The notes under the pieces are model-generated. The model was given only the letters and a program-made list of their open reading frames with translations, did no database searches and was not told the DNA's origin. Below, in pieces: positions 1-24,536 of a DNA stretch of 41,930 nucleotides. The translations under genes and the position numbers were made by a program. Position 1 is the first letter of the stretch. Each line of letters begins with the position of its first letter. Source of the stretch: a virus (taxonomy: Duplodnaviria; Caudoviricetes). The stretch is from positions 1 to 41,930 of IMG/VR virus record IMGVR_UViG_3300031965_000068. One strand, 5' to 3'.

Positions 1-47
1 ATGAGAACGACGGTCATTTCTGTATCCGTTCGTCGCGGGGTGTGGTG

Positions 48-188
48 ATGCTCGAAATCTGTGAGGAGGACCTACAGGTGATCGCCAGGAACGCGCTGAG
101 AGGACTGGTCGCGCGTGGGACGCAGGCGTTTCCAGCTCGCTGGTACACGGGACTTCCAGAGTGGGTAGAGGGTGAGGGGAAGCCATGA
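48..188 (+). CDS. hypothetical protein, 46 aa
   Basis: ATG 48 to TGA 188, read manually; ATGA overlap with next gene. Confidence 0.5.
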   Translation: MLEICEEDLQVIARNALRGLVARGTQAFPARWYTGLPEWVEGEGKP

Positions 189-409
189 GCCGCGACGATC
201 CGTGGGTGTCCGTCACCGACATCAAGGCCGGGGACTCGATCTTGTGGGCGGATCTGATTTGTGCTGTGGAGCGCGTGTCGATCGACCCCGCCCGCCGCAA
301 ACGGAGAGGGCGATGGTTTCACGTTCGGATCGAGGATGGAGCCGAGAAACGCCTCGCCTATTTCAACGACGAGCGAGTGGTCCGGCTAGACGGGGGGAGG
401 CTCCGATGA
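185..409 (+). CDS. hypothetical protein
   Basis: 74 aa ORF with ATGA coupling at both ends. Confidence 0.65.
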   Translation: MSRDDPWVSVTDIKAGDSILWADLICAVERVSIDPARRKRRGRWFHVRIEDGAEKRLAYFNDERVVRLDGGRLR

Positions 410-945
410 GTCTGCGTGAAGCCTGCAAGCACGGACGATGGGACGAGGAACATCTGATGGATGAACCCGATTCCGAAGGCTATCGACAGAACTGTCCTGG
501 CGGTCGCATCCTGTCCGACGCCGAAGCCCTCAGGGCGCTCCTGTTCGAGACATGCGGGGAGTGTGACGGGAGAGCCGAGACGTTCAAGCCGCTCGGAACA
601 ATGGCCCACAACGAGGCCAGTCCCCACTACCTGACCCCAGCGGAGGGGTTCTGGAAGGGGGAACGGCTACCGCCTGGTCGTTACCGGGTGGGTGACGACC
701 AGGACGTGTGGATCGAGTTCGATCTGCTCGGCGAGGGCGACGTGCTGACGAATGCCGTCTACCTGCCCGAAGTGGAGCATTGGCCGTTCGGTCAGACGCC
801 GCTGCGCATCATGTGGACCTGCCCCACCTGCGGTGGGAGCGGGCAGACACCGAAAGACGGGGTGCGAGTTGATCCAATGGCGAAGGACCCGAACGGCCCG
901 TTCGTCATCGTCCCCGCCTCGATGCTGGAAGGAGACAACACATGA
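406..945 (+). CDS. hypothetical protein with split DnaJ-like Zn motifs
   Basis: ATG 406 after GGAGG; CGECDG...CPTCGGSG. Confidence 0.65.
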   Translation: MSLREACKHGRWDEEHLMDEPDSEGYRQNCPGGRILSDAEALRALLFETCGECDGRAETFKPLGTMAHNEASPHYLTPAEGFWKGERLPPGRYRVGDDQDVWIEFDLLGEGDVLTNAVYLPEVEHWPFGQTPLRIMWTCPTCGGSGQTPKDGVRVDPMAKDPNGPFVIVPASMLEGDNT

Positions 946-1103
946 CCCTCCTGCTGCAACTCCGAGGGAGCGAGCGTCGAGCGGATGGTCGCCAGTTCGT
1001 GTCGTTCGAGGTGGTCGACGGCCATTGGCGCCCCGAGTATCGAGAGGACTTCAAGGTGATGTGGCGGGCCGAGAGGCTGGAAGGAGACAAGACCAATGAC
1101 TGA
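942..1103 (+). CDS. hypothetical protein, 53 aa
   Basis: SD GAAGGAG; ATGA overlap; MTLLLQLRG... Confidence 0.6.
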   Translation: MTLLLQLRGSERRADGRQFVSFEVVDGHWRPEYREDFKVMWRAERLEGDKTND

Positions 1104-1254
1104 CGACCTCTGCGCTCGATGCGGTCATGTGGACGCCTGGCACGCCTACGACGAAGGAGAGTGTTTTGTGAACTGGGAGGAACCGTTCGAGCTGTCCTGT
1201 GACTGCGAGGCGTTCGTTCCGGGCGGACGCGAAGGAGACGAGACCGATGAGTGA
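1096..1254 (+). CDS. small Cys/His-rich protein
   Basis: SD GAAGGAG; CARCGH...H...C...CDCEAF. Confidence 0.6.
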   Translation: MTDDLCARCGHVDAWHAYDEGECFVNWEEPFELSCDCEAFVPGGREGDETDE

Positions 1255-1354
1255 GATCCTCGTGGGCCTGTTCGTGGGTTGGGCCGTCTTCGAGGCGACC
1301 TACATGTTCGCCTGGTATGCGGGCTATCGAGTGGGGAGGTTCGGGGATGACTGA
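1247..1354 (+). CDS. small membrane protein, 35 aa
   Basis: SD GAAGGAG; hydrophobic ILVGLFVGWAVF. Confidence 0.55.
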   Translation: MSEILVGLFVGWAVFEATYMFAWYAGYRVGRFGDD

Positions 1355-1589
1355 GCCGACCCGAGACGATCTGCGGGTGATTGCGCCTGGCGGGTATACG
1401 AACGTCCTCGAAGACGCCGAGTTCGCCGCCATCGCCCGCAAGGACGGGTGGGTGAAGATCGACGTGGACGTAGAGGCAATGCGGGAATTGGCTGCGAGGC
1501 CGTATGTGCGAAACAACACCTCCATAGGAATCATGAAACTGGTCGATTCCCTCCTCGATGCTCTCGACCCCGAAGGAGACACCCCATGA
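1347..1589 (+). CDS. hypothetical protein
   Basis: ATG 1347 after GGGAGG; overlaps neighbours. Confidence 0.6.
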   Translation: MTEPTRDDLRVIAPGGYTNVLEDAEFAAIARKDGWVKIDVDVEAMRELAARPYVRNNTSIGIMKLVDSLLDALDPEGDTP

Positions 1590-1789
1590 ACCCCGTTGAC
1601 TCGTTGATCGATTCGTCGGTCCGCTGCGGGCGATGCGGTATGCCTGGCGTGGGAACGTGCTACTGCTGGACCCGCTGCTCGTGCGGGTGGTGGGCGGAAA
1701 AGGGCCGACCGTGCCGCAACCCGGGTACCACGCGATGCTCAACCAAGCTGCGGTACGCGGAGGTCGACCCCGAAGGAGACACACTGTGA
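1586..1789 (+). CDS. small Cys-rich protein
   Basis: SD GAAGGAG; CGRC...CYC...CSC...C...C. Confidence 0.6.
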   Translation: MNPVDSLIDSSVRCGRCGMPGVGTCYCWTRCSCGWWAEKGRPCRNPGTTRCSTKLRYAEVDPEGDTL

Positions 1790-2022
1790 TCCACGCTCTC
1801 GGCTGGGCGGCGGTCATCCTCCAGGCGGCTCACTCGTACCGGCACCGCCAGCACCTCGACCCCCACGGTGTGCTGGAGCATCGGGCGGGACTGCCGGCCG
1901 TCGCCTTCGCCGTGATCCTGCTGTTCATTCTGGCGGTGCTGATCGAAGTCACCGGGGTCGGTGGGGTCTCGGTCCCTGCCGCCCCTCCGGCTCAGAAGGT
2001 CATATGGGTGCCGGTCGCATGA
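1786..2022 (+). CDS. membrane protein
   Basis: SD GAAGGAG; GTGA overlap; hydrophobic segment AVAFAVILLFILAVLI. Confidence 0.55.
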   Translation: MIHALGWAAVILQAAHSYRHRQHLDPHGVLEHRAGLPAVAFAVILLFILAVLIEVTGVGGVSVPAAPPAQKVIWVPVA

Positions 2023-2264
2023 TCGAGCCACGACTGGAGGACCTGTTTTACGTCGCCGACAACGAGGACGGCCACCCGGAACGCTACGGGCTGGACGAAG
2101 CCGAGTTCGACCGGCTCGCCAGAGAGGCGGGCTACGTCAAGATTCCCGTCGATGCGGTGCGCCTGCCGGGCCACTACTGGATGAACGGGGAACGGATTGA
2201 GGACCCCTCGATCGAGCTGATCCTGATCCCGGCAACCGTCGTCCGAGTGCCCAAGACGAGATGA
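2019..2264 (+). CDS. hypothetical protein
   Basis: ATGA overlap; typical codon usage. Confidence 0.6.
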   Translation: MIEPRLEDLFYVADNEDGHPERYGLDEAEFDRLAREAGYVKIPVDAVRLPGHYWMNGERIEDPSIELILIPATVVRVPKTR

Positions 2265-2280
2265 CGGGCCACTACCGATC

Positions 2281-2289
2281 TGCTACCGT
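2281..2289 (+). promoter_or_regulatory. extended -10 promoter (TGnTACCGT)
   Basis: TGCTACCGTGCCGC, identical 14-mer also at 13916-13929. Confidence 0.5.
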
Positions 2290-2295
2290 GCCGCC

Positions 2296-2410
2296 TGTCC
2301 CGGCAGCCGTGGCCCTACACCATCGAAAGTCTCCGTCCTCGGGCGTGAGCCTCCTTTCGGCCGGGACCTTTCGAGGACCCCCGTCACAGCACCAGCCGAC
2401 GGGGGTTCTC
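2296..2410 (+). ncRNA. candidate structured small RNA complementary to early-promoter leaders
   Basis: Stems GTCCCGGC/GCCGGGAC and CGAAAG/CTTTCG, GNRA hairpin, 3' 13-bp hairpin; contains GCCCTACACCA and CTCCTTTCG. Confidence 0.5.
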
Positions 2411-2412
2411 GC

Positions 2413-2730
2413 GTGAAGTCCCGATCCGGCTGGCGAGCGGCGGTCCTGGACATGTACGGATTCGAGTGTCCTGTCCGCTCCGGTTGCTACGGGCGGCTCG
2501 AGACTCACCACCTGGTCTACCGATCCAGAGGCGGGCAGGATCTCCCGGAGAACGGGATCATGTTGTGCACTGTCCATCACGGCCGGGTCCACGCCAGCCA
2601 GCTCCTGATCGAACCGCGGTGGCTACACCCGTCGGCAGTCGCCTGGCTCGCAGAGCTCGGGGCGGTCGACTGGGATGACCTCGGCCAACCGTTCGGACGG
2701 CACTGGCAATCCTTCGCCCCACGCCGGTAG
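2413..2730 (+). CDS. HNH endonuclease
   Basis: C...C...HHLVYRSRGG...N..MLCTVHH..H. Confidence 0.8.
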   Translation: MKSRSGWRAAVLDMYGFECPVRSGCYGRLETHHLVYRSRGGQDLPENGIMLCTVHHGRVHASQLLIEPRWLHPSAVAWLAELGAVDWDDLGQPFGRHWQSFAPRR

Positions 2731-2752
2731 CGACGCGCTATCGTCACGCCGC

Positions 2753-2896
2753 ATGAGCGAGCAGCAGAAGCTGGTCTTTACGGTTCCGGCAGAGATGCAC
2801 GAAGCGATCAAGGATGCGGCGGCGGAAGAGGAACGGTCGATGGCCTCCTGGATTCGCCGAGCGATCGCCGCTGCTCTCCCCCCAGCCACTACTTGA
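2753..2896 (+). CDS. ribbon-helix-helix (Arc/CopG-like) DNA-binding protein
   Basis: KLVFTVPAEMHEAIKDAAAEEERSMASWIRRAI; TATCGT -10 box 8 nt upstream suggests a leaderless start. Confidence 0.7.
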   Translation: MSEQQKLVFTVPAEMHEAIKDAAAEEERSMASWIRRAIAAALPPATT

Positions 2897-2980
2897 CGCC
2901 ACTAACCTCGTGCCCTAGTGTTCCTTTCGTGTAGGGGGCGTCCATCCCGGACGTCCGCGGCTAACGAAAGGAGTGCACCA
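2888..2980 (+). promoter_or_regulatory. early-type promoter/leader cassette copy 1
   Basis: ACTAC-TTGACG-17nt-TAGTGT...GTAGGG...AAAGGAG. Confidence 0.75.
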
Positions 2981-3475
2981 GTGAGTGCATACATGGTCCC
3001 AAAGGGCCACATCGACGTCCTGGTCTCGGCAGCCCGCCAAGGTCGGGACCGTCTCCGGTGGTGGGATACCGACCCGGCTGTCCACGTCGCCAACGGGGAG
3101 ACGTTCAGCCTGGAATTCGTGCGGGAGCACATGCGGGAACTGACCGATGACAACCTCGGCCTGGTCGGAGCGATGCTGCTCAATGAGAACCGGCTGTCGG
3201 TCAACCACCGCTATCGCGAGGACGAGATCGAAGAGCCGTACCTGTTCCGGGAGACCGAGGGCTATCCACCCAAAGTGGTGCTGACGGCGATCTCCGGTTA
3301 CGAGTACCAGGCGTGCGAGCACCCCGGCTGGTTCACTTCGGAGGCTCGGCAGTTCTGCGAATCCCTGCGGGACAAGATGTGCGGGAAGCTTCGGGCAGAG
3401 GAAGGCTGGGAGATCGCCCGGCCCGCCTACCAGCGCGGGATCTCGATCCTGGATCTCGGAAAGGACAAGCGATGA
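2981..3475 (+). CDS. hypothetical phage protein
   Basis: GTG after AAAGGAG; YEYQACEHPGW motif. Confidence 0.75.
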   Translation: MSAYMVPKGHIDVLVSAARQGRDRLRWWDTDPAVHVANGETFSLEFVREHMRELTDDNLGLVGAMLLNENRLSVNHRYREDEIEEPYLFRETEGYPPKVVLTAISGYEYQACEHPGWFTSEARQFCESLRDKMCGKLRAEEGWEIARPAYQRGISILDLGKDKR

Positions 3476-3687
3476 GCATCCTGGTCATCCGCTGGTCATC
3501 CAGCAACAGCGAGCCGTGGGTCGTGGAGGACGTCAATGGCGATCAGCGGTCAGCCATAGAAGAACTCGCCGTCCAGTACGACCCGCACGCTCAGATCATC
3601 GACGACCACCCATTCTCTCCAGCCGACGCAATCGCGGCGCTGGAGGGACTCATGGAAGGAAGCACGCATGACACAGCTACCGATTGA
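3472..3687 (+). CDS. hypothetical protein
   Basis: ATGA overlap; SD AAGGA. Confidence 0.6.
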   Translation: MSILVIRWSSSNSEPWVVEDVNGDQRSAIEELAVQYDPHAQIIDDHPFSPADAIAALEGLMEGSTHDTATD

Positions 3688-4873
3688 GAAGGTCCAACCG
3701 GGGAACAACATTCGACATGCCCTGGGAGATCTCGGTCCCCTGGTCAAGTCGATCGAGGCGGTGGGCATCCTTGAGCCCTTGCTGGTGGTAGGGAACACCT
3801 CGGACGGCTGGACGGTGGTTGCCGGGCATCGGCGGCTGGCGGCGGCGAAGAAGGCCGGACTGACTGAGGTCCCGGCGTCGGTGGTGAACTTCACCGAGGC
3901 GGAGATCGCTGAGGCCATGCTGATCGAGAACCTCCAGCGGGAGGACCTCTCCCCGATCGAGGAAGCCGAGGGGCTGTTCCGGCTGGAGGAACTCGGGATC
4001 GCCCGGAAGGAGATCAGCCAGCGAACGGGGATCCCGCCCAAGCGGATCAAAGATCGAGTGCATCTGCTCGACCTCCCGAAGCCAGCGCAGAACCTCGTCC
4101 ACCAGGGCAAGCTGCCGATTGATGCCGGGCTACTCCTGGCCAACGAGCCGCCCGACGTCGTCCTCGCCATGATCGAGGAAGAGATCTCCGCTCGGGACAT
4201 CAAGTGGAGGCTGGAGCAGGTGCGACAGGAGCGCAAGAACGCCGACGCTATGGAGACCCTGGCCCCTCGGATCGAGAAGCTCCGTGAGGCCGGGGTGCCC
4301 GTGGTCGACAGACCCAAGTCATGGGAGCAGCCGGCCGGAACGGGAGGATGGGTTGAGATCGGCCAGGGCTGGTCGAAGCTCGACCTCCCGGTGCGGGAGC
4401 ACGCCAAAGAGCCATGCGCCGCCTACTGGCTGGACCCCGGCTCGGCTCATTCCCCGGCTCGGCTGATCCCCGCCTGTCAGAAGAAGAAGCGCCACTCCTT
4501 CACCGGAGACTCGGAGCTCAAGATCCCCGACGCCGAGAAGGACCACGCCGAGACCCAGGCGAAGAAGGCCCGCGCGGCAAAGGAACGAGCCAAGGCCCAG
4601 GAGCGAGAGGCCGTCTACTCGACGGTCGAGAACCTGCCTGCCGAGACGATCCAGTGGATGGTGCTCGGGTTCGCCGGGTACTCCGACCTGGCGGAAGCTG
4701 CGAAGCGGCTGGACCTGGAGACCGCCGATGCTCTGCTCGAGTACGCCGGGCAATCGAAGGCCAACCTGCGGCGGGCCGTGGTGGCGGTGGCCCTCGCTAC
4801 CGATCCTCTCGGATCAGATGGATGGGGCCACCGGGCCGCGGCAGTTAAGGCCCTTCGTGAGGCGATCCAGTGA
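3668..4873 (+). CDS. ParB/Spo0J-family protein with C-terminal extension
   Basis: GILEPLLV, VVAGHRRLAA, ENLQREDLSPIEEA, then HTH. Confidence 0.9.
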   Translation: MTQLPIEKVQPGNNIRHALGDLGPLVKSIEAVGILEPLLVVGNTSDGWTVVAGHRRLAAAKKAGLTEVPASVVNFTEAEIAEAMLIENLQREDLSPIEEAEGLFRLEELGIARKEISQRTGIPPKRIKDRVHLLDLPKPAQNLVHQGKLPIDAGLLLANEPPDVVLAMIEEEISARDIKWRLEQVRQERKNADAMETLAPRIEKLREAGVPVVDRPKSWEQPAGTGGWVEIGQGWSKLDLPVREHAKEPCAAYWLDPGSAHSPARLIPACQKKKRHSFTGDSELKIPDAEKDHAETQAKKARAAKERAKAQEREAVYSTVENLPAETIQWMVLGFAGYSDLAEAAKRLDLETADALLEYAGQSKANLRRAVVAVALATDPLGSDGWGHRAAAVKALREAIQ

Positions 4874-5247
4874 CCAGCCCGTCAGGGACGCCTTCCGCTC
4901 CGATCGAGGGCGTCCCTTCCTCTACCCCCACCCCGGGCGATTCCGGCCGTATCGGGCAAACTGGGGGCGGCTACGGCAAACGCTTGAAAGCCATCCTCCA
5001 GACTTCCTCTACTCAGACCACCAGGTGGTATGTCGACCCGGGCGACGTCCAGAGATGGGCGGTTCATCGGGGAATGACCCTGGACCCCGCCCCGGGCACC
5101 GAGCCGGCTCTGCCCTGGATGATCTCGACCGACCTCGACGTGGAAGAGATGGTCGAAGGCAAGCTGCGGCACCGGCCGGCCTCGATGGACGATGTCGAGG
5201 AATGGGCCTTGGCGAGGAACCTGCGACTACTACTTGACGCCGGATGA
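4870..5247 (+). CDS. hypothetical protein
   Basis: GTGA overlap; ends inside promoter cassette (LLLDAG*). Confidence 0.5.
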   Translation: MTSPSGTPSAPIEGVPSSTPTPGDSGRIGQTGGGYGKRLKAILQTSSTQTTRWYVDPGDVQRWAVHRGMTLDPAPGTEPALPWMISTDLDVEEMVEGKLRHRPASMDDVEEWALARNLRLLLDAG

Positions 5248-5299
5248 TCCGTGTGCCAGAGTGAGGCTTGTAGGGCAACGGCAATCGAAAGGAGTCCAC
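5229..5299 (+). promoter_or_regulatory. early-type promoter/leader cassette copy 2
   Basis: ACTAC-TTGACG-17nt-CAGAGT-7nt-GTAGGG...AAAGGAG. Confidence 0.8.
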
Positions 5300-5503
5300 A
5301 TGCACACATTCACAGCCAAGACCCGGTGCCCCTGGTGCCGGGAGCTCCAGCTCCAGGGTGGGGAGTGTGAGGCCTGCGGCTTCACCGGCTCCTGCCCGTA
5401 TTGCGAGTACGACGTGACCCCGGACAACCCGAACCCCCAAAATCACGACGGTCCCTGCGCGGCGGAAGCCGTGGCCGAGGCCCGAGCAGACGAGGTGACA
5501 TGA
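5300..5503 (+). CDS. small Zn-finger protein
   Basis: CPWC, CEAC, CPYC. Confidence 0.7.
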   Translation: MHTFTAKTRCPWCRELQLQGGECEACGFTGSCPYCEYDVTPDNPNPQNHDGPCAAEAVAEARADEVT

Positions 5504-5796
5504 TGGCCAAGATCATGAGGATCCGGTTCGAGCACAATCCATACGGGAGGGGCTGGTTTCTGAGGGTCCAACTGGGACCGGGCGCTGGCTACCGATGGGT
5601 TGACCTCCCCGGGTATTCGATGAGCGTCAACGCCCCCTGGTATCGGCACCTGTCGATCTCCGGGCGTACGGCGCGCGTTGGTTGGCGGTGCAAGGCCGCT
5701 CCTAAGAGGAATGCCTATACAAGACCCAAGCTGCTAGCTGGCCACCTGTTCACGCGAAACGCCAACCGCCACCGCGTCTACCCGGGGTGGTGGTGA
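5500..5796 (+). CDS. hypothetical basic protein
   Basis: ATGA overlap; SD GAGG. Confidence 0.6.
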   Translation: MMAKIMRIRFEHNPYGRGWFLRVQLGPGAGYRWVDLPGYSMSVNAPWYRHLSISGRTARVGWRCKAAPKRNAYTRPKLLAGHLFTRNANRHRVYPGWW

Positions 5797-6167
5797 TGGG
5801 ACTCATCGTTGACATCTATCGCACCGCCGCCCTGGGCGACTGCACCGGAGGCGGGATCTCCGCCAGCCATGACCAGTTGACGCTGGTCAACGTCTCGGGT
5901 CCGTTCGAGCCGACCCCCGACCGACCTGCGGCTCTCCTGGTGGACGGCAACCTGCGGGGGACCAAGCGGATCGTTCCGGCCGTCTGGGACGAGGACGCTT
6001 CCTGGTGGACGATGCTCCGACTCCCCGACCAGGTCGGCCCGATGATGGGCGGCAACTACGCCGCCACCTCGGACAGTCGGTTCCGGAACGCGGCCGACCT
6101 CTATGGAGCAGTCGCGATCCACGACCGCTATGAAACCCCTGAGCAGTACGCGAGGCTGAGCCAATGA
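5796..6167 (+). CDS. hypothetical phage protein
   Basis: TGATG coupling; MMGGNYAATSDSRF...IHDRYE. Confidence 0.75.
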   Translation: MGLIVDIYRTAALGDCTGGGISASHDQLTLVNVSGPFEPTPDRPAALLVDGNLRGTKRIVPAVWDEDASWWTMLRLPDQVGPMMGGNYAATSDSRFRNAADLYGAVAIHDRYETPEQYARLSQ

Positions 6168-6469
6168 ACCACGCCCAACGCCTCGCCTTGTGGCGGGACA
6201 CCCTGACCCCCGGCCGGCGGATCCGATGCGTGGAGAACACTCGGATCCCCACCAGGGCCGGGGTGATCGTCGAGATCCTGACGGTCGGCGTCTACTACGC
6301 CACGGCTTGCTGTGTCTCGGACCCGTCCGGGCAGCTCGTCGAGGGGGCTACCTTCCACCTCGACCTTCCGAAGCTTGCTCGCAACCTGCACCACGCCACC
6401 GCCGACCGCATTCGGTACACCCTGGAAGGCCCCCGCGGCGGCGAGTGCGAATGGGAGGTCATCGACTGA
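6164..6469 (+). CDS. hypothetical protein
   Basis: ATGA overlap. Confidence 0.65.
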   Translation: MNHAQRLALWRDTLTPGRRIRCVENTRIPTRAGVIVEILTVGVYYATACCVSDPSGQLVEGATFHLDLPKLARNLHHATADRIRYTLEGPRGGECEWEVID

Positions 6470-6503
6470 CTTGGGATCGCCTTTGCCGTCGGTCCCAGGC
6501 TGG

Positions 6504-6547
6504 ACCCCGCCCCTGAGATTGGGACCTCCCGGGGCGGGGTTCTCTTG
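6504..6547 (+). terminator. intrinsic terminator
   Basis: ACCCCGCCCC/GGGGCGGGGT followed by TCTCTT. Confidence 0.65.
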
Positions 6548-6554
6548 TGCGATA

Positions 6555-6620
6555 ACTACTTGACGCCTGGATACCCGTCTGCCAGAGTGAGGCTTGTAGG
6601 GCCAACACGAAAGGAGCCAG
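6555..6620 (+). promoter_or_regulatory. early-type promoter/leader cassette copy 3
   Basis: ACTAC-TTGACG-17nt-CAGAGT-7nt-GTAGGG...AAAGGAG. Confidence 0.8.
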
Positions 6621-7451
6621 ATGTTCCCTCTCGACCTGATCGACGCCAACCCGAACCAGCCCCGCAAGCACTTCGACACCGAGGGGTTGCGGGAGTTGGC
6701 CGCTTCCATCGCCAAGCTCGGGATCCTCCAACCGATCGTCGTCCGGCCGGTGGGCGATCGCTTCACGATCGTCGCTGGGGAGCGCCGGTGGCGTGCGGCT
6801 CAGATGGCCGGACTCACCGAGATCCCGGTGGTCGAGATCTCCCCCGACATGGCCGAGGGCGACCAGTTCGTCCGCTCGGTGGCCGAGAACGTCAATCGCC
6901 GGGACATGACGGTGACGGAGGAAGCCCAGGCGTTCCAACGTCTGGTCGACTCGGGCATGACGATCGAGGAAGTGGCCGAGGTGCTGGGGAAGCGGCCCCA
7001 GGACATTCGGTGGCGTCTCGATCTCCTGGCCCTGGACCCGAAGCTCGAGGAACTGGCGAACCGATCCCCCGACCTGGCCTGGTTCGTTGCGAAGTTGGGG
7101 ATCGAAGATCAATGGCGAGTGTGGAGGGAGATCAACAACGGCATGGGAACCCAAGACGCAGTTGCATTCTGCGAGGCGCTGGCTGCGCCCCAGGACGAGA
7201 TGTTCGCCGAGTTCACCCTGACGGCCGAGGAAGTCAAGATCCGGGACCAGGTGGCCTCGGTCTGCGACCGGCTGGACAAGGCGATCGGAGCGATCCACGA
7301 TCTGATGGACGGCGACGACGGCCGGGTCGCTCAGATCCTGGCTGACCGGGCCTCGATCCTCACCGACCGCCTGGAGCTCGCGGCTAAGTCGGTCCGCACC
7401 GAGGCCAAGGCGGCTCGGCGAATCCTCGGGATCGTGCGGGCACGATCATGA
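6621..7451 (+). CDS. ParB/Spo0J-family protein
   Basis: NPNQPRKHF, GILQPIVV, IVAGERRWRAA, ENVNRRDM. Confidence 0.92.
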   Translation: MFPLDLIDANPNQPRKHFDTEGLRELAASIAKLGILQPIVVRPVGDRFTIVAGERRWRAAQMAGLTEIPVVEISPDMAEGDQFVRSVAENVNRRDMTVTEEAQAFQRLVDSGMTIEEVAEVLGKRPQDIRWRLDLLALDPKLEELANRSPDLAWFVAKLGIEDQWRVWREINNGMGTQDAVAFCEALAAPQDEMFAEFTLTAEEVKIRDQVASVCDRLDKAIGAIHDLMDGDDGRVAQILADRASILTDRLELAAKSVRTEAKAARRILGIVRARS

Positions 7452-7597
7452 AGGAGTTCTACCGAGACTCCTGGCACACGCATATCACGCCTACACAGAT
7501 CCTGGTCTGCCCCGGATCGAAGTGTCATGCCTCTGAGTGCCCGGGAGTGGAGAGGCTGGTCAATACCGGGGACCCGACGCCTCGACTGCTACCATGA
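7448..7597 (+). CDS. possible small protein, 49 aa
   Basis: ATGA overlap; overlaps downstream promoter. Confidence 0.35.
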   Translation: MKEFYRDSWHTHITPTQILVCPGSKCHASECPGVERLVNTGDPTPRLLP

Positions 7598-7625
7598 CGA
7601 CAGTAGGGACCACGATCGAAGGAGC
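7587..7625 (+). promoter_or_regulatory. partial cassette copy: extended -10, GTAGGG and SD
   Basis: TGC-TACCAT-7nt-GTAGGG...GAAGGAG; no TTGACG. Confidence 0.55.
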
Positions 7626-7632
7626 CCCCGCT

Positions 7633-8283
7633 GTGCAATTGTTCACCGCCCGATACACCGCCAAACGCCTGATCGCCCAGGCCGACGCTGTGCCCGTCGC
7701 CACGACGGTTGGTCAATCGTCATCCACCTTCCACCGTCCAGCCTTCCACAGCCCGTCACTGGCCCCCTACGGCGTGTTCGGCATCACTCATTACTCCACT
7801 TTCCGGGAACGGTATCGCGAGCGTCTCGGGCGACTAGGGCTGGATCACATCGCCACCGAGCTCGAGACCATCGCCACCCTGACCGGCTGCCCTCGGCTCG
7901 CCCTGCTCTGCTTCGACGACTTGACCAAGCCCGACAACTGGTGTCATCGCCGCATGTTCGCCGAATGGTGGGAAGAACAGACCGGGATGGAGGTGCCGGA
8001 GCTGGGTCGCATGGCCGAAGCCCAGCCCGAGCTGTGGGATGCGATGGCCGACCTCCCGTCGGCGACGGTTGTCCGGAAGTCGCATCGACTGATCGAAGAG
8101 GGCCGGGTGAAGCTGCTCAAGAACGGTCGGCTGGTTCGGGTGGACGGTGACTCAGCCAGCTACGCGATCTCGATCACGAACGAGGTGGCCGGACCCTGCA
8201 TCTGTCGGTCGGTTCATCCCTGGTGCTCGCACCGCCTCGCTGCTCAGGCCGTGGTCAACCCGGACCACCTGCCCTCCACCTGA
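7633..8283 (+). CDS. DUF488-like protein fused to SWIM Zn finger
   Basis: GTG after GAAGGAG; LLCFD...WCHRR motif; C-terminal CIC...CSH. Confidence 0.7.
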   Translation: MQLFTARYTAKRLIAQADAVPVATTVGQSSSTFHRPAFHSPSLAPYGVFGITHYSTFRERYRERLGRLGLDHIATELETIATLTGCPRLALLCFDDLTKPDNWCHRRMFAEWWEEQTGMEVPELGRMAEAQPELWDAMADLPSATVVRKSHRLIEEGRVKLLKNGRLVRVDGDSASYAISITNEVAGPCICRSVHPWCSHRLAAQAVVNPDHLPST

Positions 8284-8289
8284 TACAGT
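8281..8289 (+). promoter_or_regulatory. extended -10 promoter for tRNA/modification operon
   Basis: TGA-TACAGT 11 nt upstream of the tRNA. Confidence 0.45.
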
Positions 8290-8300
8290 CCCGCGACAGC

Positions 8301-8371
8301 GCGTGGGTAGTTCAGTGGTAGAACGCCTCGATTCCGTCGGGGAGGCCTGGGTTCGATCCCCGGCCCGCGCT
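8301..8371 (+). tRNA. tRNA-Gly(TCC), atypical anticodon loop, no encoded CCA
   Basis: Cloverleaf: GCGTGGG/CCCGCGC, GTTC/GAAC, CCTCG-ATTCCGT-CGGGG, AGGC, CTGGG-TTCGATC-CCCGG, discriminator T. Confidence 0.88.
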
Positions 8372-8373
8372 CG

Positions 8374-9711
8374 ATGTTCCGTGGCTCGATACCGCCGGCG
8401 ATGCAATCGCTGGTCGTCAAGACAATCGACGGGTGGGACGTAGACGAGATCTACGTCGGCGCGTCCGGCAACTTCACGATCGAGCGACTACTCGCCCCTC
8501 GAGGGCGACGCCTGTGGTCGAACGATGTGCAGATCTACTCCTGTGCTATCGGATGGCGGTTGGCCGGCCAGGACTTCCGCCTCGAGGTCCGCCCGGACTT
8601 TCAAGACGAGTGGGGCTGGCTAGCCGACTCGATGACGACGCCCACCGGGAAGCTGGCGACGATCATGCTCGCCTCGACCATGATGCAGGGAGCCGGGAGC
8701 GGCAACGCCTACTACTCCCGCATCCGAAGGGCCTACCGGGCCCAGTGGCCCCGGCTGTTCGCCGAGACGTGTCAGACCATCGACTCGGTCGGGGTGGAGC
8801 TCGCCGGGTTCCATGCCGGGGATTGCGTCGACTGGCTGACAGAGATCCCGGCAGATCAGGGGTTCGCAGTCTTTCCTCCGTTCTTCGCCGGCGACTACGA
8901 GGCCATGTTCCGAGGATTGGGCAAGGTGTTCGACTGGGACGAGCCGGAGTATCCGGAGTTCGACCACGAGCGGGCCGAGCTGATGATCGAGCGGATGCGA
9001 GGGATAAAGCGGTGGCTGTACGGGTCCAACGTGCGCTGGCCCCAACTGGAGGACCACCTGACCGGGATCGTGCAGACCACGAACCGCGGGGTGCCGATCT
9101 ATTGCTACGCCGACGACGGGCGACCTCGGGGAGTCGTCAGGCCCGCTCAGCACATCGACGCACTCCTGATCCCACACCTCGGCCCGGACGACGAGTTGGG
9201 CGAGGAACTCAACATCATCCCGCTTACCGACGGCCAATTCTCGCTTCTGCGGTCCCGGTACATGAACCGGCACATTCGCCCGGGCCAGGCGTCGGCGGCG
9301 TACGGGGTCCACGTCGACGGGATCCTGGTCGGCGCCTACGCGATCACCACGGCTCCAACCCTCGCCCATTACGAGCGGCACATGCCGACGCCCACGGTGT
9401 ATCTGCTCTCCGACTTCCCGGTCTCGGGCACCAGATACGACCGGCTCGCCAAACTGGTGCTCTACGCTGCGTTGTCGGAAGAGTCCAAGGCGCTGATCGA
9501 GTTGGTGGGGCGCAAGCGATTCAGATCCATGGCCACGACGGCCTTCACCGACAACCCGGTCTCGATGAAGTACCGAGGGGTGTTTCGACTCCTGAGCCGC
9601 AAGGACAGCACCGACCCCCTCTACCAGTATCAGTTGCAGTACGGACGAGAGCTGGGCCAGTGGAACCTGACAGAAGGGATGGACGAGTGGCGATGGAAGC
9701 ACTCGAAGTAG
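8374..9711 (+). CDS. phage adenine-MTase-like + GNAT(Mom)-like fusion, putative DNA modification/anti-restriction enzyme
   Basis: MFxGS start; YVGASGNF (motif I-like); FPPF (variant motif IV); C-terminal YLLSDF...RLAKL...TTAF...SMKYRG; next to ParB and TerS. Confidence 0.7.
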   Translation: MFRGSIPPAMQSLVVKTIDGWDVDEIYVGASGNFTIERLLAPRGRRLWSNDVQIYSCAIGWRLAGQDFRLEVRPDFQDEWGWLADSMTTPTGKLATIMLASTMMQGAGSGNAYYSRIRRAYRAQWPRLFAETCQTIDSVGVELAGFHAGDCVDWLTEIPADQGFAVFPPFFAGDYEAMFRGLGKVFDWDEPEYPEFDHERAELMIERMRGIKRWLYGSNVRWPQLEDHLTGIVQTTNRGVPIYCYADDGRPRGVVRPAQHIDALLIPHLGPDDELGEELNIIPLTDGQFSLLRSRYMNRHIRPGQASAAYGVHVDGILVGAYAITTAPTLAHYERHMPTPTVYLLSDFPVSGTRYDRLAKLVLYAALSEESKALIELVGRKRFRSMATTAFTDNPVSMKYRGVFRLLSRKDSTDPLYQYQLQYGRELGQWNLTEGMDEWRWKHSK

Positions 9712-10571: not shown

Positions 10572-11076
10572 CGCATGGGAGCAACGAGCTTCCGAATCGG
10601 GAGAGGCCTACGCCGCCTTCCTGGCCTACCGAGACCAGGGGCTCGGCAAGCGGTCCATCCGCGACCTCTCCCGACAACTCGGGAAGAGCCCGTCGCTGGT
10701 CGCACGCTGGTCATCGGACAACGGCTGGATGGAACGGGCGGCGTCATGGGACGCCCACCTGCAACGGGTCGTCCAAGCCGAGTTCGAGGAAGAGCTACGA
10801 GCGGCCGTCAAACGCCAGGCGCAGATGGCCGGCGTATTTCTGAACAAAGTGGTGCAGCGGCTGCAACAACTCGACCCGGCCGATCTCACGCCCTCTCAAA
10901 TGATCCAGTGGTTCGACGTCGCAGCCCGGGTGGAGAGGACCGCCTTCGGTCAGCCAGACATGGTGATAGAGGGGCGAATGGGCAACACCGAGCATTCCCC
11001 GATGGTGGATCCGGGCAGAGTCATCGAGATCCGGAAGTGGCTGGAGTTGACCGATGGAGACGCTGAGGAAGAGTGA
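10564..11076 (+). CDS. terS: terminase small subunit
   Basis: WEQ...ES..AY.AF..YRD.G..RS..HTH..RWS...W..RA..WD; directly upstream of TerL. Confidence 0.75.
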   Translation: MADAWEQRASESGEAYAAFLAYRDQGLGKRSIRDLSRQLGKSPSLVARWSSDNGWMERAASWDAHLQRVVQAEFEEELRAAVKRQAQMAGVFLNKVVQRLQQLDPADLTPSQMIQWFDVAARVERTAFGQPDMVIEGRMGNTEHSPMVDPGRVIEIRKWLELTDGDAEEE

Positions 11077-11824
11077 CCGGGCGGCGGTTCGCGCCCTTCT
11101 GATCTCCGAGCACCCGGCGGTGTACGCCGAAGAGAAGTTCGGATACATCAACGAGCCGTTCCACGAAGAGTGGTACGAGGCCGAGCTGGTCCATCCCCGA
11201 CTGTGCATCGTCGCCCCCCGGGAGTACGCCAAGAGCGAGGTGTTCTCGGTCAACTCGACATGCTGGTTCGGCGAGAGGTGGCCGGGCTCGCATCAGTGGA
11301 TCTTCGAGGACTCCCTGGAGCAGGGGAAGCTCATGCTTGAGCGGATCATCTCCGCCATGACCCAGGCCAACCCCGCCATGACCGATCGAATGTGGAAGGA
11401 AGAGAACACCGATGCCATCTTCTCCAACTTCTCCCGGGTCACTGTGGCGGGTAGGGGGCAACGGAAGCGAGGTGCTCGAGGCGACCGGATCGTGGGAGAC
11501 GACATTCTGGACGAGGAATCGACTCACACCCGGTATCAGCGAGCCAAGGTAGAGCGATGGTGGGACGGGACGGTGGCGAACATGGCCCACCCTGGCATGT
11601 ACCGGAGACTCGGCTGGGGCCACCTCAAGGGCGCCGGCGTGCCGATGCTGTGGTATCCGCCCACGACGATCCGTCTGGTCGGGACTCCCTTCCACCAGGC
11701 CGACGCTCTGATGCGGATGCGGAAGAACCGGCTCTACCACTTCCGGCGGTACGAGGCCGAGTTCGATGTAGCCGACCTCGTCCCCGGCACGATGGCCGTC
11801 GAGGTGCTCCCGCTGGTGGCGTGA
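11054..11824 (+). CDS. terL: terminase large subunit, ATPase domain (N-terminal half)
   Basis: Walker A-like APREYAKS; RG; Walker B IVGDD; motif III GTP. Confidence 0.85.
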   Translation: METLRKSDRAAVRALLISEHPAVYAEEKFGYINEPFHEEWYEAELVHPRLCIVAPREYAKSEVFSVNSTCWFGERWPGSHQWIFEDSLEQGKLMLERIISAMTQANPAMTDRMWKEENTDAIFSNFSRVTVAGRGQRKRGARGDRIVGDDILDEESTHTRYQRAKVERWWDGTVANMAHPGMYRRLGWGHLKGAGVPMLWYPPTTIRLVGTPFHQADALMRMRKNRLYHFRRYEAEFDVADLVPGTMAVEVLPLVA

Positions 11825-11825
11825 A

Positions 11826-11893
11826 ACTACTTGACGCCGGCTCGCCCGTGTGACAGAGTCCTTGGTGTAGGGCAAACGGAAGGAGAGAGAGAA
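11826..11893 (+). promoter_or_regulatory. early-type promoter/leader cassette copy 4
   Basis: ACTAC-TTGACG-17nt-CAGAGT-7nt-GTAGGG...GAAGGAG. Confidence 0.8.
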
Positions 11894-11974
11894 ATGGAAG
11901 CAATCTCGACGATCGTCACAGCCGCACTGATTCTGTACCTGGTGTGGGTGATCGCGACACTCGCCTCCCGATGA
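11894..11974 (+). CDS. 26 aa single-TM peptide
   Basis: Strong SD; MEAISTIVTAALILYLVWVIATLASR; ATGA overlap. Confidence 0.6.
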   Translation: MEAISTIVTAALILYLVWVIATLASR

Positions 11975-13904: not shown

Positions 13905-13958
13905 CCACCGAGGGGTGCTACCGTGCCGCTACCGCTCCGAACGTGGAAGGAGGCTGCG

Positions 13959-14198
13959 GTGGTAGAGGACGAAGGCGCACAAGAGGGCTTGCCCGGAGTG
14001 CCGCCGCCGAAGGATCTCGTCGAGGTCTCGTTCCTCGGTGCCAAGCAACTGGTCCAGTTCGCCGGCTACCGACTGGGTGACACCGTGAAGGTGGAGCTCG
14101 TCGGGCAGTTGGTGGAGGATGGGACCAGGCGCACCACCGAGAAGGGCAAGACGAAGTTCGCCAAGATTCAGGTGGACGCCGTTGAGATCATCGGCTGA
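13959..14198 (+). CDS. hypothetical protein
   Basis: SD AAGGAGG before GTG 13959; extended -10 TGCTACCGT at 13916. Confidence 0.65.
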   Translation: MVEDEGAQEGLPGVPPPKDLVEVSFLGAKQLVQFAGYRLGDTVKVELVGQLVEDGTRRTTEKGKTKFAKIQVDAVEIIG

Positions 14199-14208
14199 GA
14201 CGGTCGAG

Positions 14209-18528: not shown

Positions 18529-18531
18529 TTG

Positions 18532-18547
18532 TGAGTGGCGGTACGCT
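18532..18547 (+). promoter_or_regulatory. late-type promoter (protease; leaderless)
   Basis: TGAG-TGGC-GGTACGCT, ATG 7 nt later. Confidence 0.7.
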
Positions 18548-19800: not shown

Positions 19801-19842
19801 CGCAGAAAGCCCCCTACCCCCGTTCGGGGCTTTCTGCGTTTC
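19801..19842 (+). terminator. intrinsic terminator
   Basis: CGCAGAAAGCCCC/GGGGCTTTCTGCG followed by TTTC. Confidence 0.75.
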
Positions 19843-19858
19843 TGAGTAGCGGTACGGT
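19843..19858 (+). promoter_or_regulatory. late-type promoter (major capsid)
   Basis: TGAG-TAGC-GGTACGGT. Confidence 0.7.
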
Positions 19859-21607: not shown

Positions 21608-22225
21608 ATGAAGGGGGCTGCCTACGGGTGGCCCCCTTCCCGCGTGGTGGTGGGCGGCACAGGCAGGTCGGGGACCGGGTTCCTGGCGGGGGTGCTCTCG
21701 GCCAACGGGATCCCCACCGGCCACGAGCGGGTGATCACCCCGGCGGTTGCCTGCGGGTTCGCCCAACCGGTATGGGACGTGCGGGTGGACGTGTCATGGA
21801 TGGCGGTCTACCGACACCGACCTCGAGCACTGATCCTGAGAGATCCATGGGAGGTAGCGGCGTCCTTCGTGGGGATCGGGTTCTTCGACTGGTCCCGAAT
21901 CGATCAGGGGAAGCATCGGGCGGTAGTGGCGATGCACACGCCGGAGGTTCTGGACGGGAAGACGCCGGCAGAGCGGGCGGTGCTGCATGTGGTGGCCTCG
22001 ACTCGGCGGGGCCTCGATAGCGCAGAGCGGGTGATCCGGGTGGAGCGTCTGTCGGTCGATGACGTTCGTATCATCGGGGAGTGGGCCGGGGTTCCGGTTT
22101 CGGCCCCTCACCTGAGAGGCGGGGATCGGAACCGTAGAGGATCGAAGCCGAGTGCCGAGGTGGTTCGATCGGCCGTCTCCGACCGGCTGGTCGCCATGGT
22201 GGATGCCCTCTACCCAACTACTTGA
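21608..22225 (+). CDS. sulfotransferase-like protein
   Basis: GTGRSGT (5'-PSB loop); ILRDP...S (3'-PB). Confidence 0.65.
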   Translation: MKGAAYGWPPSRVVVGGTGRSGTGFLAGVLSANGIPTGHERVITPAVACGFAQPVWDVRVDVSWMAVYRHRPRALILRDPWEVAASFVGIGFFDWSRIDQGKHRAVVAMHTPEVLDGKTPAERAVLHVVASTRRGLDSAERVIRVERLSVDDVRIIGEWAGVPVSAPHLRGGDRNRRGSKPSAEVVRSAVSDRLVAMVDALYPTT

Positions 22226-22285
22226 CGCCAGGCGAGCAACGTGCCATGATTGTGGTGTAGGGCAACAGCAACGAAAGGAGCCCTG
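22217..22285 (+). promoter_or_regulatory. early-type promoter/leader cassette copy 5
   Basis: ACTAC-TTGACG-17nt-CATGAT-6nt-GTAGGG...AAAGGAG. Confidence 0.8.
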
Positions 22286-22501
22286 ATGGCAGTCCTGATC
22301 GAATGCTCCGAGTGCGGCGATCTGCATTTCGACCCGATGGCCAGGGAGTATGAGCCGTGCCCGATCCGAGATTGCCCTTGCCCTTACCCGGAGCCTGAGC
22401 CGGATTACGAGCGGATCATCGAGGAACGCCGGGAAGCGGGGAAGCCTTGGTACGCCGATGATCCGTACTACGACGGCACGCCACACCGAGGGAGGCCTTG
22501 A
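22286..22501 (+). CDS. small Zn-binding protein
   Basis: CSEC...CPIRDCPC. Confidence 0.65.
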   Translation: MAVLIECSECGDLHFDPMAREYEPCPIRDCPCPYPEPEPDYERIIEERREAGKPWYADDPYYDGTPHRGRP

Positions 22502-22900: not shown

Positions 22901-23793
22901 AGTGGGTCAACCTCGACTGCACTCACCCCGAGGTCCGGCATGAACACGGGACGTATGTCTGCTACGTCCAGGACGGATGCCGGTGCGATCCATGCCGGGA
23001 GGCCCGGCGTGCCCGGCGTCGACAGTGGGAACTCGAGCGAGTCGGCCTGCGCCCTTCGTCTTTCGTGGACGCATCGGAGGCTCGAGCCATTGCCGAGCGC
23101 CTGGCCGAAGCGGGGATCTCCCTCAAGCACCTGGCTCGAGCGACCGACCTGAGTCACGGCTCCCTGTCGAGGCTGATCTACGGATGGAGGGATGTCGGTC
23201 CATCCCGGAAGGTGGCCCGTCGGACCCTCGACCGGTTGCGTCGGGCAGAAGCCGACTTCCACGACGAGTTCCTGGTCCTCCCCGACGGCGTGCCGATTCC
23301 GGCAGACGAGGCCAAGCTGATCGTGACAGAGCTGGTGGCTCGAGGGTGGTCCAAGAGAGCGATCGCCTCGCACGTCGCCGGAGAACCTCGGGGGGCGCTG
23401 CAGTTGTTCAAGGGCTCGGCGGAGGGGACCTTGGCAGGCACTCTCCGCCGGCTTCGGGAGGCGATGTGTATGGAGGTGCCGATGCGAGTCCACAGTCCCA
23501 CCGGCAGGCTGTACCAACCGAAGGGCCGGCTACCTCGGGAGGTCCCTCGACTCACCCCGCACGTCGGCGGTCCCGAGTTCCGCAAGGTGACGGCCGCTGA
23601 CCGGGTCCTGGACCTGCTGGACGCCGAGGGGGGCTGGGTCTCAGAGCTGGAGCTATTGGACCGGCTCAACGCTTCCGAGTCGGCCGTCTCGCAGGCGCTG
23701 CGCCGCCTGGTATCCGCAGGCCTGCTGGAGTCACGGACGGGACCAATGTCCTTCCGTCTGAGAAATCCTGCACTACTACTTGACGCGGGTTGA
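22894..23793 (+). CDS. multi-domain DNA-binding protein (HGT-CRC-C Zn motif, HTH, winged HTH)
   Basis: HGT...Y...GCRCDPCR; ISLKHLARATDLSHGSLSRL; ELLDRLNASESAVSQALRRL. Confidence 0.75.
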   Translation: MVKWVNLDCTHPEVRHEHGTYVCYVQDGCRCDPCREARRARRRQWELERVGLRPSSFVDASEARAIAERLAEAGISLKHLARATDLSHGSLSRLIYGWRDVGPSRKVARRTLDRLRRAEADFHDEFLVLPDGVPIPADEAKLIVTELVARGWSKRAIASHVAGEPRGALQLFKGSAEGTLAGTLRRLREAMCMEVPMRVHSPTGRLYQPKGRLPREVPRLTPHVGGPEFRKVTAADRVLDLLDAEGGWVSELELLDRLNASESAVSQALRRLVSAGLLESRTGPMSFRLRNPALLLDAG

Positions 23794-23847
23794 TCCGTCT
23801 GCCAAGATGATGTTGTAGGGCAACGGCAACACGGAAGGAGCCCCGCA
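23775..23847 (+). promoter_or_regulatory. early-type promoter/leader cassette copy 6
   Basis: ACTAC-TTGACG-17nt-CAAGAT-6nt-GTAGGG...GAAGGAG. Confidence 0.8.
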
Positions 23848-24051
23848 ATGTTCCAGGTAGTCAGCACAGAGACCGGCGAGATCTTCGCCACGACCGAGAC
23901 CTTGGACGAGGCAGTCGCCGAGATGCATCGCCAGTTCCCGGTCGTCACCCCGTGGGACGGGATCGAGGTCCCGGTCGCAGTTCGCAAGGTCGGCTACACG
24001 CCCTCCCGCAAAGTCCAGCAGTTCCGGCGCACGATTCGGAAGGAGTCCTGA
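23848..24051 (+). CDS. hypothetical protein
   Basis: Strong SD from cassette. Confidence 0.7.
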   Translation: MFQVVSTETGEIFATTETLDEAVAEMHRQFPVVTPWDGIEVPVAVRKVGYTPSRKVQQFRRTIRKES

Positions 24052-24052
24052 C

Positions 24053-24376
24053 ATGGCCTCCAACCGCTTCGCCAAGTTCTCCGAGATCTACGACGGCAAC
24101 CCCTCCGACCCCCGGGCCAGCGTCCTGTGGGACGCCGACCACCAGGTCGACGAACTGGCCGGCCAACTCGAGCGTGAGTTGGTTCGCCTCCAGGACAAGG
24201 CCGCTCGGGTCCTGGACATTCTCGGCACCAACGAAGCCGAGGAAGCCGAGCCCTCGTACATGCTCAACGAACTGGGCGAGTTCCAGGGGATCGATCCCGA
24301 CAAGACCATCTCCGCTCTGCATACTGCGGTCCAGTACCGTCAGACGATCGCACGGCTGATCGAGAAGGGTGCCTGA
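24053..24376 (+). CDS. hypothetical protein
   Basis: SD GAAGGAG. Confidence 0.7.
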   Translation: MASNRFAKFSEIYDGNPSDPRASVLWDADHQVDELAGQLERELVRLQDKAARVLDILGTNEAEEAEPSYMLNELGEFQGIDPDKTISALHTAVQYRQTIARLIEKGA

Positions 24377-24400
24377 GCCCGTCACAGCCCCCACAAGCTC

Positions 24401-24445
24401 CGAACCCCCGCCAGGCCCTCCCAGCCCCCACTCGGCGGGGGTTCG
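24401..24445 (+). terminator. 12-bp hairpin, probable terminator
   Basis: CGAACCCCCGCC/GGCGGGGGTTCG. Confidence 0.6.
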
Positions 24446-24536
24446 GTCGTTCCTGGGACGAATGGTGGGGTCTCCTGCCACGCTGGCCGCTATCACCCTG
24501 GTAGGGTTTCGCTACCACGACAGAAGGAATAGGGCT

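Follow-up and report, generated by a model that had tools for sequence, protein, structure and literature searches.

Short motifs that mark a subset of phage ribosome sites are known from cluster K mycobacteriophages and cluster EF Microbacterium phages, for which the accessible sections of the papers describe SAS and ESAS as asymmetric, phage-private motifs standing before non-structural genes in one orientation (PMC3203893, PMC7302621, PMC11373665, PMC12699233). Pope et al. reported a single reverse SAS copy in four K1 phages and, in the part of the paper available to us, left open whether its partner is an RNA or a protein (PMC3203893). In the accessible text of all four papers the reverse copy is not interpreted as an RNA (PMC3203893, PMC7302621, PMC11373665, PMC12699233), and the role of SAS was called ill-defined or unverified in passages dating from 2024 and 2025 (PMC11373665, PMC12699233). 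In 4/4 Anayavirus we find the single reverse SAS of cluster K1 within an open hairpin loop whose stem varies; in Adephagia it lies between genes 92 and 93, a region where, as far as the available text goes, RNA-seq apparently places a late transcription start (PMC11373665). This should not be generalised too readily: the cluster K6 phages Tierra and Ekdilam keep SAS, with a loop that has drifted from this motif, two K3 stretches are without it, and six of the ten cluster K stretches examined are without the 9-mer. As a separate observation, an intergenic multi-hairpin element before the last three genes of Anaya (29780-29990) is conserved in cluster K, in 182 records, and its C-rich loop is the anti-SAS in K1 and drifted in K6.

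The window analysed here, that is, the whole stretch of DNA under study, is a 41,930-nt virus record (66% G+C, estimated 55% complete). As with SAS, its motif marks the ribosome sites of some of the non-structural genes and keeps to a single orientation. Unlike in SAS, however, there are two tags, one at the 5' end of the leader and one at the Shine-Dalgarno sequence (SD), whose reverse copies form a bipartite guide within one element; the sequences and the lineage differ as well, and the cluster K 13-bp consensus is not matched by window-type motifs. With the c4 RNA of phages P1 and P7, as the accessible part of the source presents it, the element would share its character as a small, structured, trans-acting RNA of a phage that uses short, phage-specific complements around a ribosome-binding site, but c4 controls an antirepressor message for prophage immunity (PMC12197685), whereas the window element would address at least seven scattered leaders. 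The Rfam C4/CI covariance model has no match in the element. The P4 CI RNA is of the same kind as c4, a small structured trans-acting phage RNA. The likeness to the 6C/B11 sRNA of the same host phylum lies in C-rich single strands set against the G-rich ribosome sites of many messages, and for 6C pairing through the C-rich loops was shown without a chaperone; unlike the phage-specific guides of the window, 6C is, according to the sections at hand, chromosomal, with two C-loop hairpins and generic targets (PMC6486639). Against the 6C model (RF01066) the element scores 22.4 bits vs a threshold of 47 (E = 1.7), and it matches no Rfam family. RNA-guided binders (TldR/TnpB, dCas12f, bridge RNA, TIGR-Tas) use a short stem-held guide matching promoter-proximal sequence, with two guide segments on opposite loop strands. 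The window element likewise holds its guides in a stem-closed loop, but no such effector family was found among the window and G018 ORFs scanned, and in G018, the relative with the closest HNH and terminase, the pairing stays inside the transcript.

Judged by its sequence, the element would work like a multi-target antisense sRNA, but it is not a c4, 6C or 6S member. What the window contributes is a guide in two parts, each of which is exchanged in a relative with the element at the corresponding position, and the recurrence of the arrangement in cultured phages of Arthrobacter. In the open-access literature searched, no publication came up that gives SAS-type tags an antisense partner; the cluster AT description (PMC5513430) is without the word 'promoter', and its accessible part does not mention the hairpin.

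Fold and predicted promoter of the element

The element at 2297-2410 is real, non-random and covarying (Table 1). An earlier note on this DNA had outlined two helices and a 13-bp 3' hairpin, and all three are upheld: P1 (2297-2304/2360-2367) and P2 (2324-2329/2354-2359) have pair probabilities of 0.99 and 1.00, and the 3' hairpin (2373-2410) has 13-14 bp, its 3' arm including the G-rich SD-like run of the HNH gene. Its GGGGTTCTC ending recurs at 6536. Comparison with shuffled controls, which the note had proposed, gave z = -3.74 for the fold of 2281-2412, with 0/200 shuffles equally stable; minus the 3' hairpin, the core reaches a z of only -2.1 to -2.6. The minus strand of the window element folds as well as the plus strand (-61.7 vs -60.2). 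Two further features of the proposed fold did not survive: the GGC-GTGA-GCC GNRA hairpin has a probability of ~0 and costs 8.6 kcal/mol, and the pairing of CGAAAG with a second CTTTCG, put forward as a switch, costs 9.8 kcal/mol and is disfavoured. The 19-nt strand that had been taken as unpaired is indeed partly open, but a 3-bp helix forms within it; opening this strand costs 4.7 kcal/mol and opening both guides 10.3 kcal/mol. A contig from a second sequencing run spans window positions 2152-2353 with zero differences.

The extended -10 that had been pointed out, TGCTACCGT, is present at 2281, and the spacing rule for such promoters sets the predicted +1 of the RNA at 2297, the first base of P1. 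The 14-mer TGCTACCGTGCCGC of this predicted promoter occurs again before the ORF at 13923, which a profile identifies (E = 6e-8) as homologous to the post-HNH gene of the relatives. Since both halves of this split gene pair share the upstream 14-mer, a real promoter is argued for, one not of the repeated TTGACG class. The homologue itself (window 13916-14198) is a small post-HNH gene relocated beside the terminase nuclease gene. A strict sigma-70 consensus scan of window 1-8500 called zero promoters and missed the repeated ones too, and a terminator scan did not call the hairpin at 2373-2412. The ~115 nt described earlier as gene-free are not strictly so, as a 51-codon ORF, a possible coding gene, spans the gap.

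Table 1. Parts of the element, neighbouring genes and predicted target leaders in the window
Feature	Position	Strand	Remark
Predicted promoter of the RNA	2261..2289	+	ATGACG, 17 nt, extended -10 TG-C-TACCGT
51-codon ORF across the element	2261..2416	+	overlaps upstream stop (ATGA) and HNH start (GTGA), 4 nt each
P1, 5' strand	2297..2304	+	pairs with 2360-2367, p = 0.99
Guide 1, complement of +1 region in seven leaders	2305..2323	+	sequence matches
P2 5' strand CGAAAG and inner hairpin	2324..2350	+	masks 6/9 anti-SD bases
Guide 2, anti-SD CTCCTTTCG, complement of CGAAAGGAG	2351..2359	+	exact match
P1, 3' strand	2360..2367	+	fold prediction
3' hairpin, likely terminator, weak U tract	2373..2412	+	z = -6.75
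Small HNH endonuclease, conserved in phage family	2413..2730	+	
Arc-like ribbon-helix-helix protein	2753..2896	+	no tblastn match in relatives
Promoter and leader copy 1 (target)	2889..2983	+	cis anti-SD at 2921-2929
Promoter and leader copy 2 (target)	5230..5302	+	
Promoter and leader copy 3 (target), before ParB-like gene	6556..6623	+	
Seventh leader (target): extended -10 TGCTACCAT, AGTAGGGACCACG, CGAAGGAG	7587..7635	+	
Promoter and leader copy 4 (target), between two terminase halves	11827..11896	+	
Promoter and leader copy 5 (target)	22218..22288	+	
Promoter and leader copy 6 (target)	23776..23850	+	

Complementarity to the tagged leaders

Six promoters in the window have the form CTACTTGACG, 17 nt, YANNRT, 6-9 nt, GTAGGG (2889, 5230, 6556, 11827, 22218, 23776), and a seventh leader, overlooked in the earlier note, has a different promoter with AGTAGGG at 7602, so that GTAGGG at the predicted +1 is common to seven leaders. 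The tagged genes are presumably early, a label suggested by promoter form and gene content. The match counts of the 19-mer guide 1 that had been given for copy 6 (16/19), copy 5 (15/19) and copy 2 (13/19) are correct; copy 4 also has 13/19, copy 3 has 11/19, copy 1 has 10/19 and the seventh leader (7603) has 9/19. Six positions of the guide 1 core GCCCTAC are matched in 7/7 leaders. The SD tag CGAAAGGAG stands before start codons in 4/4 copies in the window, and guide 2, as had been noticed, is perfectly complementary to the SD in copies 1, 2, 3 and 5; copies 4 and 6 read CGGAAGGAG.

In the window, TGTAGGG has six sense copies and one reverse copy, and CGAAAGGAG has four and one; the sole reverse copies of both words lie within the element. 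Such a co-occurrence within 70 nt would be expected ~1e-4 times per genome, for words chosen after the fact. Every 80-nt stretch of the plus strand was scored for exact complementarity, in two segments, to the six leaders defined by a promoter; the element ranked 1 of 8,220, with a score of 16.5 vs 13.0 at the next locus. Predicted binding, compared between leaders and controls, points the same way: in our own single-site approximation (not IntaRNA), corrected for opening costs on both partners, the seven leaders bind at -8.2 to -14.4 kcal/mol, and the control, 35 other SD-bearing starts, has a mean of -3.9 and a best value of -9.3. Six of the seven leaders outbind all 35 other starts, all six via guide 1. 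Upstream of +1, the complement extends over 4/5 bases in copies 4, 5 and 6, over 3/5 in copy 1 and over 0-1/5 in copies 2, 3 and 7; the copies with the extension appear to sit where read-through transcripts would contain those bases, a pattern noticed after the fact among n = 7.

Several other features of the leaders deserve mention. Copy 1 has its own anti-SD just 5' of the predicted +1 (2921-2973 region), which in a read-through transcript folds onto the SD (-40.2 kcal/mol), and a start at 2928 leaves most of the SD free; a cis switch set by transcript origin is thus possible in this fold model. The six repeated promoters carry GTG-TAG or TTG-TAG, a start followed by a stop, at the +1 region (2929-2933, 5268, 6594, 11865, 22255, 23813); promoters of the Arthrobacter phage KellEzio read ATG/GTG/TTG-TAG at +1, and the predicted +1 of G018 is itself ATG. 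The KellEzio leaders (10450, 32345, 33701, 35146, 36306, 39213) have 5'-terminal hairpins that pair the GTAGGG-like start in cis, a type that most window leaders are without. A second start-associated motif, GAAGGAGAC, occurs in six copies in all and precedes five small left-operon genes at 920-1790; its reverse copy is absent from the window. It is 8/9 complementary to 2329-2337, but as its predicted binding is weak, it was left out of the target set. Structural genes are preceded by a third promoter-like repeat (18530-18547, 19841-19858, 29654-29671), which reads TGAGTRGCGGTACG(C/G)T and is a candidate late promoter.

Covariation in related phages

From its sequence, the window phage is a relative of Arthrobacter cluster AT phages: among 50,697 cultured-phage records, its ATPase (11054-11824) and HNH (2413) have six matching records each, all of this cluster, and the phages matched by the two proteins are KellEzio, Kitkat, BeatusComedenti and DanielleIgnace. 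These relatives, together with prophages in three Actinomycetota genomes, suggest an actinobacterial host. The terminase large subunit is encoded in two genes (ATPase 11054-11824, nuclease 14119-15183) separated by several genes and a promoter cassette, and cluster AT is arranged likewise. Window capsid and portal have no match in the cluster AT-type relatives, and hence the phage is a mosaic with capsid and portal from another lineage. Elsewhere in the window there are a tRNA-Gly(TCC) at 8301-8372 with an extended -10 motif before it at 8281, a tRNA-Tyr at 41371-41445 on the minus strand (called by ARAGORN and not by Rfam), and an Acb2/Tad1-like hairpin-domain protein at 24369-24899 (Pfam E = 6e-10), a candidate anti-defence nucleotide sponge. 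The genes for a DAM-like/GNAT fusion, DUF5131, a glycosyltransferase-like protein, a hexapeptide acyltransferase and PIG-L at 8374-9711 and 24793-28577 are likely to form a DNA or virion modification cluster.

A terminase alignment led to 20 viral loci, of which 14 records were taken whole, four as loci and two short ones left out; further material came from the full genomes of KellEzio and DanielleIgnace, from 11 of the 49 metagenome loci and from three prophage regions. The terminases of the phages compared are only 41-52% identical to that of the window, and the relatives have repeated promoters with leader tags unlike those of the window. Other searches were less productive. DNA pattern scans of viral contigs returned 13 RNA-pattern and 87 promoter-pattern matches, none judged related on inspection; single-protein locus searches (HNH; capsid) found nothing, and a search with the HNH alignment gave 57 loci at E >= 5e-11, mostly with the generic HNH core only.

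A repeated motif can be recognised in eight relatives. In four of them the complement clearly changes with the leader tag, a point that the earlier note had proposed to check, in one it probably does, and in three, all incomplete, no element was found; Kitkat and BeatusComedenti are not counted as separate cases, and other records are too short or showed no motif. The most informative relative is G018, a complete genome with the closest HNH (44%) and terminase (52%) to the window. Directly upstream of the same HNH gene it has a P1-closed element containing first GATGTGTTCC and then CCGTTCTCC, the sole reverse copies of, respectively, the +1 tag GGAACACATC and the SD tag GGAGAACGG; the tags themselves have three and 11 sense copies, respectively, each of the latter before a start codon. 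Its putative promoter is TGn-TAGATT followed by 7 nt and then P1. In other words, position, promoter spacing and guide order are those of the window, and both guides are swapped to fit the G018 leaders. There is little primary sequence similarity between the two RNAs, so their homology rests on position and architecture. The strong 3' hairpin is absent from the G018 element, and no coupled ORF runs across it.

The remaining clear cases are single-arm versions. In G010 the tag GTACCTGGC has one reverse copy, in a P1-closed element beside CTTCTCG, with a strong hairpin after it. KellEzio has 16 sense copies of GGCGAAAG and one reverse copy, which lies in a long intergenic hairpin with TAGACT before and a second strong hairpin after; Kitkat and BeatusComedenti share this stretch at 97-99% identity. 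Of the two reverse copies in DanielleIgnace, one lies in a long hairpin, across which the annotated hypothetical gene 33 runs, and the other is shown in a loop. The last base tracks the tag, with GGCGAAAGGA/TCCTTTCGCC in KellEzio and GGCGAAAGGT/ACCTTTCGCC in DanielleIgnace. In G016 a P1-closed hairpin, with a second hairpin after it, has a 7-nt anti-tag in its loop; since the 7-mer has seven reverse copies, this case was counted as no more than probable. The tags are tied to gene starts here as well: GGCGAAAGG precedes starts in 9/9 cases in KellEzio and 12/14 in DanielleIgnace, and AAGGAGAAC does so in 12/12 in G018. No element was found in G012 (88% complete), G017 (50%) and G006 (65%).

By the two-segment score, the element ranks 1 in G018 (of 10,662 stretches) and in G010 (of 12,761); that of DanielleIgnace comes second, behind its other reverse copy, and that of KellEzio is not at the top, as 50 stretches score as well. 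In a cross table of exact complementarity (five RNAs by eight leader sets), each RNA is highest on the leaders of its own phage, with a tie of KellEzio with DanielleIgnace, which shares its tag; raw duplex energies show no cognate specificity. In four of the five RNAs the guide strand matches more bases in the distant tags than in its cis partner (9 vs 6, 9 vs 3, 11 vs 10 and 12 vs 6), DanielleIgnace being the exception (10 vs 10). Such longer matches to distant tags suggest that the antisense strand is under selection and speak against a duplicated inverted repeat. The plus strand folds better than the minus strand by 5-14 kcal/mol in 4/4 relatives. The guides are largely masked in KellEzio, DanielleIgnace and G010, as is guide 2 of the window, and an unmasking step must therefore be assumed.

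Outside this group, 15 phages related by the capsid protein alone gave a repeated pre-start 9-mer in two and its reverse copy in neither, and three prophage regions in bacterial genomes showed neither promoter repeats nor a reverse copy. Three candidates were rejected: a reverse TGTAGGG at 58,761 of KellEzio, considered as a homologue, has no structure and is missing from Kitkat; a candidate at 20.7 kb of G012 forms no fold; and the single reverse copy in G006 was read as the SD of a leftward gene. As a side observation, G012 has non-coding degenerate repeats (GCACGTAG, GGTAGGGGC) at ~46,690-47,270, between the terminase ATPase and RusA genes.

Competing readings and possible action

We favour, with moderate confidence, the reading in which the element at 2297-2410 would be a small trans-acting antisense RNA regulating the tagged leaders; it is a separate locus with short complementarity to the translation-start regions of distant messages. 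Its place directly upstream of HNH, in both the window and G018, could also mean that it is a cis leader of the HNH transcript, refolded in the style of a T-box by early messages or by translation of the 51-codon ORF so as to set read-through into HNH and the Arc-like gene. The SD-like run of HNH within the 3' hairpin and the 4-nt overlaps of the ORF with both neighbours fit this reading, but in equilibrium folding the 3' hairpin stays intact with both guides opened, and a candidate antiterminator costs 10-35 kcal/mol. Moreover, the elements of KellEzio, DanielleIgnace and G010 lie far from HNH, before other genes, and the coupled ORF is missing from G018, so we regard a cis leader as unlikely. 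Slightly less credible to us is an RNA that does pair with the leaders but does not repress, and instead shields 5' ends, directs processing or hands messages to ribosomes. Guide 1 does cover the extreme 5' end, the strongest predicted pairing in 6/7 leaders, and the KellEzio leaders shield the same 5' motif with their own hairpin; against this, the SD itself is covered by guide 2 in all five RNAs. An sRNA that covers the SD is known to block 30S binding. The tags might also be protein sites, either DNA operators, for instance for the Arc-like protein, or sites of an RNA-binding protein, with the element as an extra site or decoy. This would suit the Arc-like gene two genes downstream, the sense tag copy in the 5' arm of several elements and, in the accessible text on cluster K SAS, the choice between protein and RNA partner left open (PMC3203893). 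It is nonetheless a decidedly improbable reading, since within a conserved fold that includes G-U pairs the two tags are reversed separately, with their order swapped, since the tag is followed more closely by the antisense strand than by the sense copy, and since the Arc-like gene is without a match in relatives.

The remaining possibilities appear still more remote. The earlier note had assigned one RNA to all leaders, acting by antisense pairing, by an R-loop at open promoters or as a 6S-like decoy; covariation and binding energies support the pairing, and the two other modes are unsupported. The RNA could guide a protein, possibly the adjacent HNH, to promoters through an R-loop at the open complex or to messages for cutting, given that the complement reaches 3-4/5 bases upstream of the predicted +1 in copies 1, 4, 5 and 6, that the RNA adjoins a short HNH in two phages and that the HNH catalytic and zinc residues are intact. 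In G018, however, the pairing sets in at +2 and leaves out the conserved base just before it in 4/4 leaders, and the targets of the SD guide are 11 internal genes, most of them without promoters. No TnpB/Cas12f, IscB, IS110 or Nop family was found in a Pfam scan of ORFs of the window, itself 55% complete, and of 97 ORFs of the complete G018, long structural genes left out. HNH is modelled, with confidence, as a 105-aa domain and nothing more (pLDDT 95.8), with generic HNH matches only and no PDB match at E <= 0.001, and in eight other relatives inspected HNH lies within operons without an adjacent RNA, which leaves this reading with a very small share of our belief. Just as little is given to the absence of any RNA function, with the locus being a small coding gene, an inverted promoter-cassette leftover or chance. 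The codon score of the 51-codon ORF (-0.15) is above all 54 off-frame runs, and the core z is low once the 3' hairpin is removed, but the score is below all 93 in-frame blocks, and the ORF has neither an atlas match nor an exact match in the protein collection. An inverted cassette remnant, which the earlier note had named as a possible refutation, is contradicted by the promoter matrix, which scores -9 on the minus strand vs 35-49 for true copies, and against the reading as a whole stands the covariation in four other lineages. Least probable of all, to the point of being negligible, is a 6S-like decoy, an RNA that would mimic an open promoter and so bind RNA polymerase. The stem is closed and has a large unpaired strand inside, which recalls 6S RNA. 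That RNA is a long rod with a central bubble, but the core here is 71 nt with a one-sided loop and no such rod, there is no Rfam 6S match even at E <= 10, and an anti-SD covarying with internal genes would be left unexplained.

For the probable antisense RNA, we propose the following course of action. The RNA would be made from its extended -10 promoter, unlike the repeated class, probably later in infection, and would end at the 3' hairpin; late timing is suggested by the difference in promoter class and by the parallel with cluster K1 mycobacteriophages. The partly open guide 1 is predicted to seed on the GUAGGGC 5' end of the leaders, after which the SD would displace the 6-bp P2 and pair with guide 2, giving a three-way junction on P1. 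Such a two-site clamp is suggested by the geometry of the modelled fold. Translation of the non-structural cassettes would then fall together, with or without RNase attack, and the RNA is likely to turn the whole set of presumed early genes down at once; we infer repression because the SD is covered, as for c4 RNA and 6C RNA. A bolder and rather unlikely extension is an RNA-coded regulon in many actinophages, with a private tag in the early-gene leaders and the fitting guide on a single late RNA. The guide, bipartite in the window and G018, would there clamp the 5' end and the SD around a three-way junction and, loaded or unmasked by a nuclease, would silence or destroy all the tagged messages; the nuclease would come from the phage or the host and would possibly be the adjacent short HNH.

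SAS motifs have been unexplained since 2011, and the element offers a testable partner for such tags. Since cultured Arthrobacter phages (KellEzio, Kitkat, BeatusComedenti and DanielleIgnace) are included, the question is directly testable. If the regulon reading were true, it would amount to a compact, re-addressable RNA silencing device. If the antisense reading is true, the element would provide a small orthogonal translation switch for Actinobacteria, and the phage would time its gene expression not by a repressor protein but by one RNA addressing many scattered messages.
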